The notes: a model not told the origin generated them from the letters alone. A stretch of DNA of 45,008 nucleotides from Candidatus Brocadiia bacterium (GCA_046538485.1 JBKHIT010000039.1:1-45008), one strand, 5' to 3'. Shown: positions 32,974 through 45,008, counted from the first letter of the stretch. Program-made: numbers and translations.

Positions 32974-33436
32974 AGGGGACGTACGATCGCATCTCGTTGC
33001 TCAGGATATCGTTACGTATTTTAAGGGGCCTCTCAGAGGGCTTAGAAGCGATTTTCACCCCCCTTAAATCAACTGTAAGGCGGCGATACCTCCTGTGCGC
33101 GCCATGTGCTCTCCTCGTCCTTCTCCACCGGGGCGAGTTCAATGCGCCGTCGCCCGAGCCGGCCTCTCTCATGGCAGAAAGCATAGGGGCATTTTACCGT
33201 CTGGGGGGCGGGTTTTAAAGAATTACTCCGGGAGAACGGACAATGTGACTCGGGAATAAACGTTTGATGCCACGCGACCTGATAGCGAGTGGAAGATGAT
33301 TTGCCAGCGGTAACGGGTGAGAGAGAGCCGTTTAGAATCCGAAAACACCCCCCGAAAAACGGATGTAAGGCCCTCTGAGAGGGTGTCTATTGTCGTATCC
33401 TGTTATTTTGCAGCGACATGCGATGGTACGTCCCCT
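32974..33436 (-). mobile_element. Non-autonomous, internally deleted derivative of a RAYT/HUH element (MITE-like)
   Basis: Imperfect terminal IRs AGGGGACGTAC[G/C]ATCGCAT[C/G]TCG[T/C]TGC; subterminal TTAG..TAAG hairpins; minus strand retains LGRRRIELAPVEKDEESTWRAQEVSPPYS*, homologous to the C-terminus of the 37205-37942 transposase. Confidence 0.85.
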
Positions 33437-33467
33437 TTATCTGACAGATCTTTTTCTTCCCTTGCTG

Positions 33468-33479
33468 TGGTCCGACCCC
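33468..33479 (-). repeat. Solo element terminus (GGGGTCGGACCA)
   Basis: TGGTCCGACCCC identical to the transposase-element terminal IR. Confidence 0.7.
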
Positions 33480-33531
33480 GTACCACAGGGCCCGTACAGC
33501 ACCGAATAACAACCCCATTACCCCCGCAAAA

Positions 33532-34992
33532 TCATTTCGCTCCGCGCGTGCCTGTGTTGCGTAGCTGGACATCGATAAGCCGGATCGATACGTCATCGTT
33601 GGCGCCAGATAGCCCACCGTACCTTCCTCCATCATCTTTCCCGTTTCTTCCAACACTGTAGATGACCCGTCCCTTTTCTGTAATCTCATATTTCAAGGAA
33701 GACTCACAAAAAGGATCTTGTAGACCCGATTTCTTTAGACTACCAAGATCCTCGGGCCAACGTCCATATTCACGCCGGTATATTTCAGCCAGAAGTCCAG
33801 CTCGTATGACTCTTAGCTCGGCGCGGTACTGCGAAATTTCTATGATTGATCGCAGCAAACCTGCATAGCCCACATCCAGATCAGCCTCTTGAGCAAGCAT
33901 GTTTCTGCACCTTCCGGCCAACGCTGCTTCGGACAATTTCTTGGCATCTTGCTGCACTTGCAAGAGTTTCCTTACCTTCCCAGCCACACGTAATTTGTAT
34001 GAACCGGGACATATTGCTGACCATCCACGGAACCAGCGTAAACTCTCTCGAAGTTTCATAGACGGGACAAGGGTAAGGTCTTCCGCTACCCAGCGAGGCA
34101 CCGGCTCATCCATATCTTCGTAGTAGCGCTTGCTTTCATTTGCCACCCGCAAAAACCACAGGTCAAAATTCTCTAGCCACCTTCGAGCAAGCTGGAGCTC
34201 AGCAAGACACTGAGCTTCAAGGCTTATAGCCTTTGCCTCGTTCCGAAGAAGATTACAACTTTTCTCAAGCAAGCGGCTGTCAGGCTCCATCTGCGATAGT
34301 AGATACTGAAATGAGTCCAGCAGGTAAGATCCCAAACTAGAGCGCGTCAGCCATACTCCGAAAGGCGCTTGTGTGCTCAGCAAGCTACTCAATCTCAGCA
34401 TGTCATTGCACGACTTAACAGCCTGTTCATCATCCCCTCTACACACGCTCCGGAAACAGAGCAGACGCTGAGTCCGGAAGGCCTGCCGCAACCCATCCTG
34501 CACTCGCCCCATATCGCAGACCGACTTGTTACCAAATGACAGTAGACTTATCCCCAAACTTTTTGACGATGAAACTTTGTCCAGCAAAGCCAAATACGCA
34601 CTGTTTGCCTCAATATACCTTTCCACTTTTGCACACCAATCCCCACTTTCCAGCGCCTTGCCCTGGGGGAGATCCATCACAGCGGAAAGCTCAATTGGCA
34701 GATCTTGCTGTTGCACTGGAGCTGCACCCGCAAGTAGGTAGAGGCGTATTTTGGCTCTCTTTTTTGCTGGCATCCAGGCAGAGGGATCGGCTGTCGAAAC
34801 CCCGACATTGTCCAAGTGCGAAAGCAATTGACGTCGCGCCCCTTCTCCCCGGTGGTTCGTGACGACAACATAACCAGTCAAAACAGCAAAGCAAACGGCA
34901 AGTACCCAAAGGCTGCCGTTGGCAAGTTTTGGAAGCCAACGGAAAAACGGATTGCTCTTTTTGCTTTTCAGGATCTTTTCGCCTGTAGACAT
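33532..34992 (-). CDS. Membrane-anchored hypothetical protein with GspG-like C-terminal motif, directly downstream of RHS
   Basis: N-terminal TM segment; C-terminal YRREYGRWPEDL..DPF..YSVGRNGKDDGG. ATG 34992 with GGAG RBS (ORF track starts at 35163, overlapping RHS). Confidence 0.7.
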   Translation of the reverse strand: MSTGEKILKSKKSNPFFRWLPKLANGSLWVLAVCFAVLTGYVVVTNHRGEGARRQLLSHLDNVGVSTADPSAWMPAKKRAKIRLYLLAGAAPVQQQDLPIELSAVMDLPQGKALESGDWCAKVERYIEANSAYLALLDKVSSSKSLGISLLSFGNKSVCDMGRVQDGLRQAFRTQRLLCFRSVCRGDDEQAVKSCNDMLRLSSLLSTQAPFGVWLTRSSLGSYLLDSFQYLLSQMEPDSRLLEKSCNLLRNEAKAISLEAQCLAELQLARRWLENFDLWFLRVANESKRYYEDMDEPVPRWVAEDLTLVPSMKLRESLRWFRGWSAICPGSYKLRVAGKVRKLLQVQQDAKKLSEAALAGRCRNMLAQEADLDVGYAGLLRSIIEISQYRAELRVIRAGLLAEIYRREYGRWPEDLGSLKKSGLQDPFCESSLKYEITEKGRVIYSVGRNGKDDGGRYGGLSGANDDVSIRLIDVQLRNTGTRGAK

Positions 34993-35044
34993 TTGCAACT
35001 CTCCTGTAACCCATACTCCACCAAAGCCGTTCCTTACATACAAC

Positions 35045-43831: not shown

Positions 43832-43855
43832 TTTAAAACCACTTTTAATAAAAAA

Positions 43856-44760
43856 TCAATCTCCTCCGAAAACGCCGGGCACTAGAGGTATCTCGGTTTC
43901 GTAAAAGGAATGTCCGTCTATAGCCTGCCAGCTTTCTGTTCGTGACCAAAGCCCCCATATCGCACTTACTTCATATACCACTTCTAAACCTCCCCATCCC
44001 AATTCAGCGCCGCAGGCCAACCTGGGAGGCTCCACATATCCCCTCAAAGTGCCTTCTCCATAGATATTGGTGTTTCCCGAAAGCTCGGCGGAAGCCACGC
44101 CATGAAGAGCTGTTACCTTTCCTCCGAGGGTTACGCCAATTGCTCCCGCCAGCGACCCCCCGCCATAAAAATCGTCTTGTTCTGCATCTTTCCCGACATC
44201 CGCTTCAAGGCTGATACTGCCTGAACCGCCTATAAAAGCCTGAGCATCAATTAAAAAGGTTGGGACGCCTGCAAGAGCGGCTCCGCTAAAGTATACCCTG
44301 ACACCAGCTTCACCCGTTAAACCACCGCTTAGCTCCCATGCGTAACCAACCCTGTGGCTGTTTCCTATTTCCTCATACTGATTTTGAAACCCAACAGACC
44401 CAGAAAAATCGGGTTTGGGGTCCCAATTAAAGTAACCAATAGTCCCTGCCCTCCTCCCCGCTCTCTCCAGCTTGTCTAACAATTTAACAAAATCGTCGAC
44501 ATCGGGCGCTCTAACACTTTGCTCATTTACCACATCCGGATAAGCGAAAACCGATCTCTCTTTTGTACCGCTGTCCGGCAACGGTTCGCAAACGATACTA
44601 TAGACTTCCGGATCCAGGTCGTAAAGGAAAAAGTCGGTAACGTCGAAACCAGAAGCATTGAAGGATACCTCGGTGCCTTGCAGTTCTTTGGTATCGTCAC
44701 CATTAGAAATTGTCCATTTAGGATATTCGTCAGGATAAGTAATATCCGAACTGGGTTGGC
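43856..44760 (-). pseudogene. C-terminal fragment of a larger Gly-rich beta-strand protein, cut by an element end
   Basis: The first 29 aa of ORF 43856-44848 (MKNASKPSERPLKS..LWSDPY) are read from the element end; no native start is visible before the junction at 44761. Confidence 0.65.
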
Positions 44761-44761
44761 T

Positions 44762-44954
44762 ATAGGGGTCGGACCATAACATATCGTTGCTGATACTCAC
44801 TTTACAACTTTTCAGGGGCCGCTCAGAGGGCTTAGAAGCGTTTTTCACCCCCTCAAAAATGGCTGTAAGAGGGCGAAGCTTCTCTGACGCGCCAGCTATC
44901 CTCTCCTGGATCGCCAGTAGGCTCCAGTTTTATCCGGGCTCTCCTTCCAAGTTT
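44762..44954 (-). mobile_element. Partial copy of the RAYT element end, including the transposase 3' end
   Basis: Matches 37114-37306 with one visible mismatch (TTTACCAC vs TTTACAAC). Confidence 0.9.
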
Positions 44955-45008
44955 TGGCTATAGGGGTCGGACCATAACATATCGTTGCTGATACTCACTT
45001 TACAACTT
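44954..45008 (-). repeat. Tandem re-start of the same element end, running off the window edge
   Basis: Identical to 44756-44810, including the flanking TTGGCT. Confidence 0.8.

Follow-up and report, generated by a model that had tools for sequence, protein, structure and literature searches.

Ends of a TIRtron-like element at the breakpoints of RHS gene pieces in a Candidatus Brocadiia bacterium

Introduction

TIRYT genes are RAYT-like genes flanked by inverted repeats, and in the available passages of Di Nocera et al. (2013, PMC3733652) these repeats have the motif GGGGWSAS in common and occur as single, dimeric or clustered units. The accessible parts of Quentin et al. (2018, PMC6006769) equate the TIRYTs with TnpA-Y1 subclass 2.1, characterized by an NHVH motif, a median length of 238 amino acids (aa) and a C-terminal helix-turn-helix (HTH) domain, and in the passages at hand of Bertels et al. 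(2017, PMC5581495) the same enzymes constitute RAYT Group 1. In those passages of the three papers no function is reported, and no link is made to RHS genes or to displaced gene ends. A TIRtron measures ~1 kb and consists of a TIRYT gene with its inverted ends on either side. In this study, a contig of 45,008 nucleotides (nt) from a Candidatus Brocadiia bacterium (GCA_046538485.1, JBKHIT010000039.1) was analyzed over its whole length, which is called the window below. Its last 12 kb combine pieces of RHS toxin genes with copies of one mobile element, a TIRtron, the ends of which lie where the genes are broken.

The orphan arrays of RHS loci, said to have been treated by Poole in 2011 and by Koskiniemi in 2014, reportedly form by C-terminal displacement, a view ascribed to Jackson in 2009. 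For the gain of RHS tips and the formation of orphans we know only of recombination models that have no defined right-hand junction. H-rpt (ISAs1-type) and other insertion sequences reside inside the Rhs elements of E. coli. To our knowledge, residents of the H-rpt type carry DDE transposases, and we know of no report that they mark orphan breakpoints. Y1 enzymes of the TIRYT and RAYT type are common, and as far as we know no activity beyond the spreading of their own repeats has been established for them.

Results

Element ends and RHS breaks in the last 12 kb of the contig

The window is the entire contig C99 of a genome of 143 contigs and 5.19 Mb that is 88% complete, and the contig end falls in a repeat. 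The motif GGGGWCGKAC has exactly 10 matches in the window, all within 32975-44972, whereas shuffled versions of the window contain 0.39 on average and none of 100 shuffles reaches 10. With one mismatch permitted, the two terminus 11-mers are found at 11 sites in 32900-45008 and nowhere in 1-32900. An earlier reading of the sequence alone had listed ten termini and none in the first 32 kb, and all ten were recovered at the positions it gave. It had also taken them for the ends of an element with an HUH (Y1) transposase, which agrees with the inverted TATAGGGGTCGGACCA ends around a Y1_Tnp gene in the one complete copy. All genes of the 32.9-45.0 kb region lie on the minus strand, and all element copies in the window share one orientation. 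Read along the minus strand, the order is low-GC block, 34-nt terminus unit, D5-2, rhsB, D5-1, complete element, rhsA, an open reading frame (ORF) of 543 aa, solo D-like terminus and 464-bp copy (Table 1). D5-1 and D5-2, two single end units, differ by 9% and are thus distinguishable.

Both RHS pieces have the hallmarks of a toxin module, with YD/RHS repeats (RHS_repeat, 108.6 bits), a core-end domain (TIGR03696, 68.3 bits at rhsA aa 442-526 and 76.2 bits at rhsB aa 304-388) and a variable tip; the tips match no family, and the contig has no full-length RHS gene. The minus-strand frame of rhsA is open up to 37105, a stop sits 6 nt from the element, and the element begins at 37114 with its transposase-distal end abutting rhsA. 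rhsB is enclosed by two 190-nt repeat units of 91% mutual identity, has a tip of only ~67 aa and no downstream gene; its frame begins at a GTG within D5-2, and D5-1 lacks that GTG. In the low-GC block a 330-aa ORF has its first 29 residues encoded by the element end. The single homologue recovered for it (G353:C189; matches in 2 of 121 genomes, the window's own included) runs at least 235 aa further in the N-terminal direction, and the ORF is therefore regarded as 5'-truncated. The suggestion that the truncated genes break at or near element ends is thus confirmed, with rhsA open to 37105 and the element at 37114, rhsB between repeat units and the 330-aa ORF read from an element end.

On the whole, and with appreciable reservation, we lean towards reading the last 12 kb as a decayed RHS array invaded by one TIRtron family, in which the elements caused the junctions as a by-product of their spread and not through a capture specific to RHS genes. 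The elements would probably help to displace gene ends without being a dedicated toxin-capture machine.

Junctions at the transposase-distal end in other lineages

At each junction the distance was taken between the distal end of the element and the point where homology with the main RHS gene begins. By this measure, three lineages have an orphan RHS core whose start is at most 13 nt away from the transposase-distal end. In the window, where the distal end is at 37114, the rhsA-matching contigs of runs X1 and X4 continue RHS-like only up to 37107. A Desulfobacterales bin (L093) has, in this order, a full RHS gene, a small ORF, tandem degenerate terminus units, the element, an orphan RHS gene, a small ORF and the start of a second element; the terminus ends at 8905 and nucleotide homology of 84% is unambiguous from ~8916, with its start ~11-14 nt past the distal terminus. 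In L125 (G254, from another family of the window's phylum) the element ends at 9356-9359, and homology of 93% over 670 nt starts at 9353-9362. The transposase frame ends there 3 nt before the open frame of the orphan, and behind the orphan and a small ORF lies a second copy of the element with an internal deletion. Both L093 (84%) and L125 (93%) thus have a main gene and an orphan with the 3' core common to both, and they bear out, for other phyla, the abutment of an element end on an RHS breakpoint. The order is again the same in L052, where the ends of the element are not definable. In L093 the element is preceded, at 7790-7880, by at least six tandem degenerate copies of the first ~10 nt of the terminus (CGGCATAGGG-like). 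Comparable features are the 34-nt unit of the window and the doubled termini in L045, L050, L068, L074, L077, L094 and L112.

A test for homology between the two flanks of the element gave 7 same-strand matches among 53 usable loci and 1 among 53 mismatched pairs. Of these seven matches, L052, L093 and L089 start at the distal end and the others are repeated element ends. Twelve usable cases from the phylum add L125 only, so that flank homology begins at the distal end in 4 of 65. L089, from a Nitrospirae bin, is not an RHS locus: an ABC-F gene has its last 210 nt repeated there with 96% identity ~11 nt past the distal terminus, and between the two ABC-F ends lie a CBS gene, a phosphorylase gene, an ORF without known function and the element. 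The layout is accordingly the same, with gene, cargo, element and old 3' end in succession.

In the flanks of intact copies at 16 loci, inspected by eye, no consistent repeat indicative of a target-site duplication was seen. The idea that GACCCC represents Asp-Pro codons of the RHS core-end motif was discarded, as it fits L052 only and neither window junction.

Class assignment of the element

The 261-aa transposase of the complete element matches Pfam Y1_Tnp with 49.2 bits (cut-off 23) and no other transposase family, and it contains the motifs NHVH, FWEGRY and YVDMNM. NHVHLVV and the Tyr of LLYVDMNMVRAG are invariant in an alignment of three sequences. The Y1 fold, the HUH motif and the catalytic Tyr of a TIRtron are thus all present. 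The best NCBIfam model is REP_Tyr_transpos (NF047646) with 66.7 bits, below its cut-off of 80, and the sole match in the PDB at E <= 0.01 is E. coli TnpArep (4er8, E 0.0038).

The inverted repeats also agree with the published GGGGWSAS motif, to which GGGGTCGG fits in 7 of 8 positions and GGGGACGT in 6 of 8, and the motif of the relative in L125, GGGGACAG, fits it fully. The ends of the window family are of the GGGGTCGGACC type, and end units without a transposase are left behind as well. Dispersed single, dimeric and grouped repeats occur, with a dimer-like unit at 32972-33435 and tandem units at 39794-39861 and at 62485/62538 of contig C54. The class 2 signature Y---NP is absent, because YVDMNM, in each of the three sequences aligned, retains the N but carries M where P would stand; the nearest published Tyr motif is the YVDLNP of subclass 2.3, in the accessible parts of Quentin et al. 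(2018, PMC6006769). A Pfam search at E <= 0.01 for a C-terminal HTH domain (Bac_DnaA_C, HTH_23, HTH_28) gave no match in the window transposase, and a distant relative, L126, has weak matches to HTH_28, HTH_38 and HTH_23. Judged from these sequence features, the window element is a TIRtron with a TIRYT enzyme of TnpA-Y1 subclass 2.1, and its class is one already known.

Two other identities were considered and rejected. For IS200/IS605, the TnpA model NF033573 yields 27.4 bits (cut-off 55), the Tyr motif differs from Y---Q and inverted ends are present. For IS91/ISCR, which would have a Y2 HUH Rep-like enzyme and oriIS/terIS, only Y1_Tnp matched. Distant Y1 genes lie in open frames of 929, 647 and 505 aa in L129-L131 (G237:C116, G073:C47, G101:C277), beside arrays of the palindrome GGGGTC[A/T]GACCCC with a spacing of ~45 nt, a REP/BIME-like array built on the same core motif.

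Co-location of the element family with RHS genes

A search of a species-genome collection with the three-sequence alignment found at least 592 relatives, of which the best 80, with 43-53% identity and from many phyla, were studied. GGGGNCGNACC is present at 49 of the 80 loci and clusters ~120 nt before and ~100 nt after the transposase gene; because of these fixed distances, the terminus 11-mer is the conserved end of a widespread unit of ~950 bp. RHS genes lie within 8 kb at 3 of the 80 loci (L052, L064, L093). In a survey of 301 genomes of the phylum, the transposase gave 219 matches in 93 genomes and the RHS core-end domain 759 matches in 190 genomes. With 150 matches listed for each, only these compared and their coordinates cross-checked by eye, the counts of co-location are lower bounds. 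At least five transposase/RHS core-end pairs lie within 5 kb in the 301 genomes, compared with 1.30 expected under uniform placement (P 0.011). Among the matches listed there are four such pairs (G124, G254, G293, G125) against 0.17 expected, and the fifth (G060:C4) was found in fetched flanks. For the control families, again among the matches listed, RHS within 5 kb was seen for 0 of 150 DDE_Tnp_1 and 1 of 150 rve transposases. The ten co-located cases agree in arrangement, each with the transposase downstream of an RHS core end and in the same orientation as it (p 0.013 at a prior of 65%). The family thus sits in RHS arrays above chance, with modest figures. The only control co-location in the 300 rows listed is an rve-type transposase in G255:C47, 23094-26216, which lies 2.6 kb downstream of an RHS core end and is co-oriented with it.

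Random insertion of the elements into a dispensable locus of large genes, with recombination between direct copies deleting the interval, the transposase doing no more than insert and the RHS link reflecting target size and tolerance, would make the locus an ordinary case of passive insertion-sequence accumulation. This is an unlikely explanation, although several facts suit it. All window copies are in direct orientation, RHS genes are the largest targets nearby, the rve transposase of G255:C47 has a comparable position, elements elsewhere in the genome occupy accessory or defence-type islands, and clustering of TIR repeats is already published (PMC3733652, in the passages available). It would however require two insertions and one deletion per junction and, in L089, a pre-existing second ABC-F gene end, and it predicts neither the excess over the DDE and rve controls nor the constant contact of the distal end with the retained 3' part.

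Independently of the element, ten multi-module RHS arrays (88.8 kb) of other genomes were picked from the RHS matches. None has a terminus at a module junction and nine have no Y1 homologue, and from this it follows that the element is not needed for RHS arrays, most of which form without it. The remaining array, L141, has a distant Y1 homologue (E 8e-11), co-oriented and downstream.

Distribution of the ends within the genome

Among 46 genomic sites of the terminus 12-mer with 130 nt available, 37 have interior sequence in common with another end. Eight of these ends are in the window and 29 on 19 other contigs, many of them at contig ends; the transposase family is represented in this genome by one intact gene, that of the window, and three fragments. 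Annotation of the neighbourhoods by Pfam covered 9 of 20 loci and 77 of 144 ORFs (L020-L030 lay outside the scan). The neighbours of the ends at these nine loci comprise Fic, AbiE, AAA ATPase, PIN-like, DUF4143, reverse transcriptase, type I restriction-modification, transporter and DUF1559 genes. RHS fragments on C121, C134, C35 and C28 have borders free of termini, also when one mismatch is permitted, and on C55 one terminus lies ~300 nt from an RHS start. The supposed tie of the termini to RHS genes, for which scatter over the genome had been named as the refuting outcome, is largely overturned by the 29 of 37 ends that lie beside unrelated genes on the other contigs. In a search for an orthologous locus in 40 relatives, none of which belongs to the same genus, only short pieces of element or RHS sequence matched.

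This scatter bears also on the proposal of the sequence-only reading that an integron-like system assembles toxin modules here, with an HUH enzyme that captures and shuffles polymorphic-toxin cassettes at its ends. Modules bracketed by direct end repeats, in the window (D5 around rhsB) as well as in L093 and L125, would fit such a system, as would the excess of RHS co-location with its uniform orientation and the transposase frame of L125 that stops 3 nt before the orphan frame. The proposal is nevertheless quite improbable and was not upheld. The ends are spread over 19 other contigs next to unrelated genes, no termini mark the breaks of the RHS fragments of C121, C134, C35 and C28, the element is missing from 9 of the 10 RHS arrays sampled, and the same layout is found at the ABC-F gene of L089. 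The breaks furthermore cut the frames at core positions that vary from 470 to 1607 nt before the core end. An attI-like site, a fixed promoter and clean cassettes are all lacking; the transposase lies between modules, and fold z-scores are weak.

Two further loci of this genome were recorded. In L013 (G000:C95), 737-3700, two Fic-family genes stand in tandem, and behind each of them lies a subfamily-A terminus, at 2011 and at 3689, with both termini oriented alike. The second gene has an open frame that extends to its terminus, and the locus may represent a further pair of toxin-type genes enclosed by end units. L017 (G000:C121), 8350-14651, encodes a two-partner-secretion pair (ShlB-type transporter, TPS domain, 1336-aa ORF); a few kb away lie fragments of the element, an AbiE pair and a 552-nt RHS fragment that stands alone.

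Support for the junctions from assembled reads

Run X1 has Logan contigs that agree with the window without difference across the junctions at 32972, 33435-33479 and 38295/6. One of them (38217-38710) bridges D5-1 to rhsB, and another of 5,035 bases (39751-44785) spans the units at 39829-39865 and the low-GC block and reaches 24 letters past 44761/2, short of the 31 letters past a junction that were set as the threshold for bridging. Unique blocks have an equal depth of 21-24 in X1, and the low-GC block has the same depth as its flanks; X1 may be the source sample and would then not count as independent support. Runs X3 and X4 contribute small shares only. The window closes (44756-45008) with a tandem repeat that comprises the first 198 nt of the distal end plus 9 nt of flank and may be a real duplication or an effect of assembly.

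A contig of this metagenome bin threaded through the repeated ends and RHS cores, so that true blocks were joined in a false order, would be an artefact, and this is a very improbable explanation of the region. The whole contig does end in a repeat with a 198-nt tandem copy, Logan contigs break at repeats and leave four junctions unbridged, and the runs contain several cross-joins between both RHS pieces. Yet three gene-terminus junctions are covered without difference and at equal depth by X1 (with the proviso that X1 may be the source sample), the D5 units are 9% apart, and the same layout occurs in the assemblies of other projects (L093, L125, L052, L089).

Properties of the end units

Units of the D type were seen in this contig only, apart from look-alikes of 77-89% identity in G007 and G024 without RHS genes nearby, and a metagenome scan for the D-unit terminus gave two matches, both due to chance and inside a coding gene. 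The 464-bp subfamily-A copy has relatives of 85-94% identity on C121, C8, C1, C103, C139, C95 and other contigs. The fold z-scores of single ends range from +0.4 to -2.5, with a mean of -0.9 for the 37 ends (mononucleotide shuffles), and an Rfam search of 32000-45008 gave no match at E <= 1.

A scan of 36900-40100 for sigma-70-type promoters, other promoter types being outside its scope, gave one site, inside rhsB, where 2.2 were expected, and none in the end units. The scan thereby speaks against a regulatory use, in which end units would be kept 5' of orphans as a promoter or start for expression of toxin and immunity genes. End units or elements do lie directly 5' of RHS fragments, rhsB starts at a GTG in D5-2 and the 330-aa ORF starts within an element end; that GTG, however, is not kept in D5-1, and a regulatory role is hardly to be expected.

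Other features of the window

The low-GC block contains two paralogous lipoprotein-like ORFs, a DUF3592 membrane protein, a 619-aa signal-bearing ORF and the 5'-truncated gene (43856-44761); from a reading of the translations by eye, its proteins may be exported. Residues 438-527 of the 543-aa ORF resemble C44:198285-198578, a part of an 898-aa ORF, with 35% identity. That ORF (L011 6262-8955, minus strand) has no assigned family, and its 5' end abuts a subfamily-A terminus at C44:200918. Over its first 32 kb the window carries genes of ordinary kinds, for sugar degradation, sulfatases, peptidases and DUF1559 proteins, together with a group II intron reverse transcriptase; the annotation of the window contains no secretion genes. 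The stretch around the reverse transcriptase, at 8-10 kb, is GC-rich and has a positive GC skew, opposite to the remaining contig. The gene for the 495-aa HNH protein is the sole long plus-strand gene close to the RHS region.

Table 1. Features of the window, with coordinates counted from its first letter
Feature	Coordinates	Strand	Description
GGGGWCGKAC matches (outer coordinates)	32975, 33435, 33479, 37117, 38097, 38289, 39823, 39857, 44765, 44963		
464-bp transposase-less copy, subfamily A	32972..33435	.	inverted GGGGACGTAC(C) ends at 32975-32984 and 33426-33435
Solo D-like terminus	33470..33479	-	GTACGGGGTCGGACCACAGCAA; ~50 nt downstream of 543-aa ORF; cut after ~35 nt by subfamily-A copy
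543-aa ORF	33532..35163	-	downstream of rhsA; no family assigned; 119-nt overlap with rhsA ORF end
rhsA	35045..37105	-	5'-truncated RHS core; YD repeats; core-end domain aa 442-526; ~150-aa C-terminal tip without known family
Complete element (TIRtron)	37114..38097	-	inverted ends TATAGGGGTCGGACCA at 37114 and 38097; 261-aa Y1 transposase 37205-37990
D5-1	38106..38295	-	190-nt single end unit, transposase-proximal type; terminus 38280-38289
rhsB	38296..39637	-	RHS fragment, both ends cut; ~60% aa identity with residues 182-540 of rhsA; core-end domain kept
D5-2	39638-39829	-	91% identical to D5-1; inner end abuts rhsB 5' break
Extra 34-nt terminus unit	39828-39861	-	adjoins D5-2; joint unit 39638..39861
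Low-GC block	39865..44761	-	42-45% GC; five ORFs
330-aa ORF	43856-44848	-	5'-truncated gene read from element end
Distal-end fragment	44762..45008	-	193 nt, 99% identical to 37114-37306; second start of same end from 44954 to contig end
Group II intron reverse transcriptase/maturase	8495-9814	+	RVT_1 145 bits, GIIM 50 bits
495-aa protein	28987-30474	+	Tic110-like and TerB-like stretches; C-terminal HNH nuclease

Discussion

The order of events, the circle and the catalytic step set out here are a proposal. An element end, probably cut and joined by the transposase, would be fused to a point inside a gene, and homologous recombination on the other side would complete the event. The product would be a full gene with a fresh 3' part, followed by any cargo, the element and the old 3' part starting at the distal end. 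Where the gene is an RHS gene, this displaced part would be an orphan module of core remnant, toxin tip and immunity gene. Two routes could lead there. By the first, a circle made of the gene from the point of fusion onwards, the cargo and the element, closed at the distal end, would enter by one homologous crossover. By the second, the element would insert into one of two tandem gene copies, with subsequent recombination between direct element copies. The element end would set the break by both routes, and only by the first would the transposase join the end to foreign DNA. An active role of the end is favoured because it is always the distal end that is involved, because the joins are near-exact in independent lineages, and because L089 would otherwise need a spare copy of the gene.

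A bolder and rather unlikely extension is that TIRtrons are general vehicles for the displacement of gene 3' ends, the Y1 enzyme cutting at the distal end and at a stray upstream site and the resulting circle of gene 3' part, cargo and element, closed at the distal end, re-entering by one homologous crossover any genome or paralogue that has the gene in common with it. The entry of such a circle into an RHS gene would install a new tip and immunity gene and push the old ones downstream as an orphan, and a transposase class so far without an assigned function would then drive the turnover of toxin tips across phyla. Orphans that start at most 13 nt from the end of a Y1 element would offer one DNA end, one enzyme and a predicted circular intermediate both for what the enzymes do beyond spreading their repeats and for how RHS tips are gained and orphans formed.

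Several points weigh against the preferred reading of a decayed array in which the elements caused the junctions. No event was observed, and everything beyond the anatomy is deduced from end states. Displaced gene ends are lacking at 61 of the 65 loci, and in the window and L093 5-13 nt of unassigned sequence separate the terminus from the homology. The retained core varies from ~470 to 1607 nt before the core end and no motif is shared by the equivalent sites of the main genes, so there is no sign of a fixed target. Both RHS pieces of the window, moreover, meet the inner end of a D5 unit and not the distal end, which the model leaves without explanation: rhsB meets it directly, and one X2 contig (depth 5.5) joins D5 to RHS-like sequence without the complete element, suggesting that rhsA met the inner end before the complete element arrived. 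None of the listed Logan contigs bridges 37113/4, 38097/8, 39637/8 or 44954, which is not evidence against the joins.

The statistical arguments have comparable weak spots. When abutment was defined by an open frame of at least 150 codons and a tolerance of 40 nt, 14 of 38 termini outside the window contig (a set that includes chance sites) abut a long open frame, compared with 65% of 3000 random sites. With a one-sided p of 0.044, the difference between the family and the controls, 4 of 150 against 1 of 300, is a weak comparison. The joint gathering of mobile DNA and RHS genes in variable islands is left out of account by the uniform null, and related genomes are not independent. Insertion of IS200/IS605-type elements is coupled to the direction of replication, and the co-orientation may partly reflect such a coupling together with gene-strand bias.

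The literature outside subscription journals yielded no description of a RAYT, TIRYT or other Y1 transposase in connection with RHS arrays, in keeping with the statement of the sequence-only reading that it knew of no such combination. A preprint that names both Rhs and RAYT treats the two topics separately, and in the first 300,000 characters of Zhang et al. 2012 the word transposase occurs once, in an unrelated context. Among the matches listed, papers found with the two terminus 11-mers were all unrelated, and those found in a separate search on RHS orphans did not contain the term H-rpt. The recurrent, near-exact pairing of the distal end of a TIRtron with displaced gene 3' ends, RHS orphans included, appears to be new.

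Several known systems resemble the locus in part. IS91/ISCR elements, IS26 translocatable units and integron cassettes share with it that an element end and adjacent DNA move jointly, possibly as a circle. Their enzymes and sites are different (Y2 Rep-like for IS91/ISCR, DDE for IS26, a tyrosine recombinase with attI/attC for integrons) and none of these parts is present here, where re-entry would moreover be a homologous crossover and not site-specific. With H-rpt the locus has in common that insertion sequences have long been known in RHS loci. REPtrons, that is RAYTs with their REP/REPIN sequences, have an enzyme of the same superfamily, a gene between its own inverted repeats and repeats that multiply without the gene; they differ in that their repeats are hairpins of 20-40 nt, whereas the window units measure 190-460 nt and fold weakly (mean z -0.9), and the RAYT model scores 66.7 against a cut-off of 80.

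The closest likeness in the element itself is to TIRtrons and their TIRYTs, with a Y1/HUH enzyme of ~240-260 aa carrying NHVH between inverted GGGG-led repeats at fixed distances, dispersed repeat units and a wide, patchy taxonomic spread that includes Planctomycetes-type genomes. The imperfect fit of the window motif (GGGGTCGG/GGGGACGT), YVDMNM instead of Y...NP, and the lack of a detected C-terminal HTH set it apart. In gene order the counterpart is the RHS orphan array, in which a main gene is followed by orphans of core remnant, tip and immunity gene with a common 3' core (84% in L093, 93% in L125). The window contig differs in having no full-length main gene, and at these loci the 5' limit of the orphan is the end of a Y1 element.

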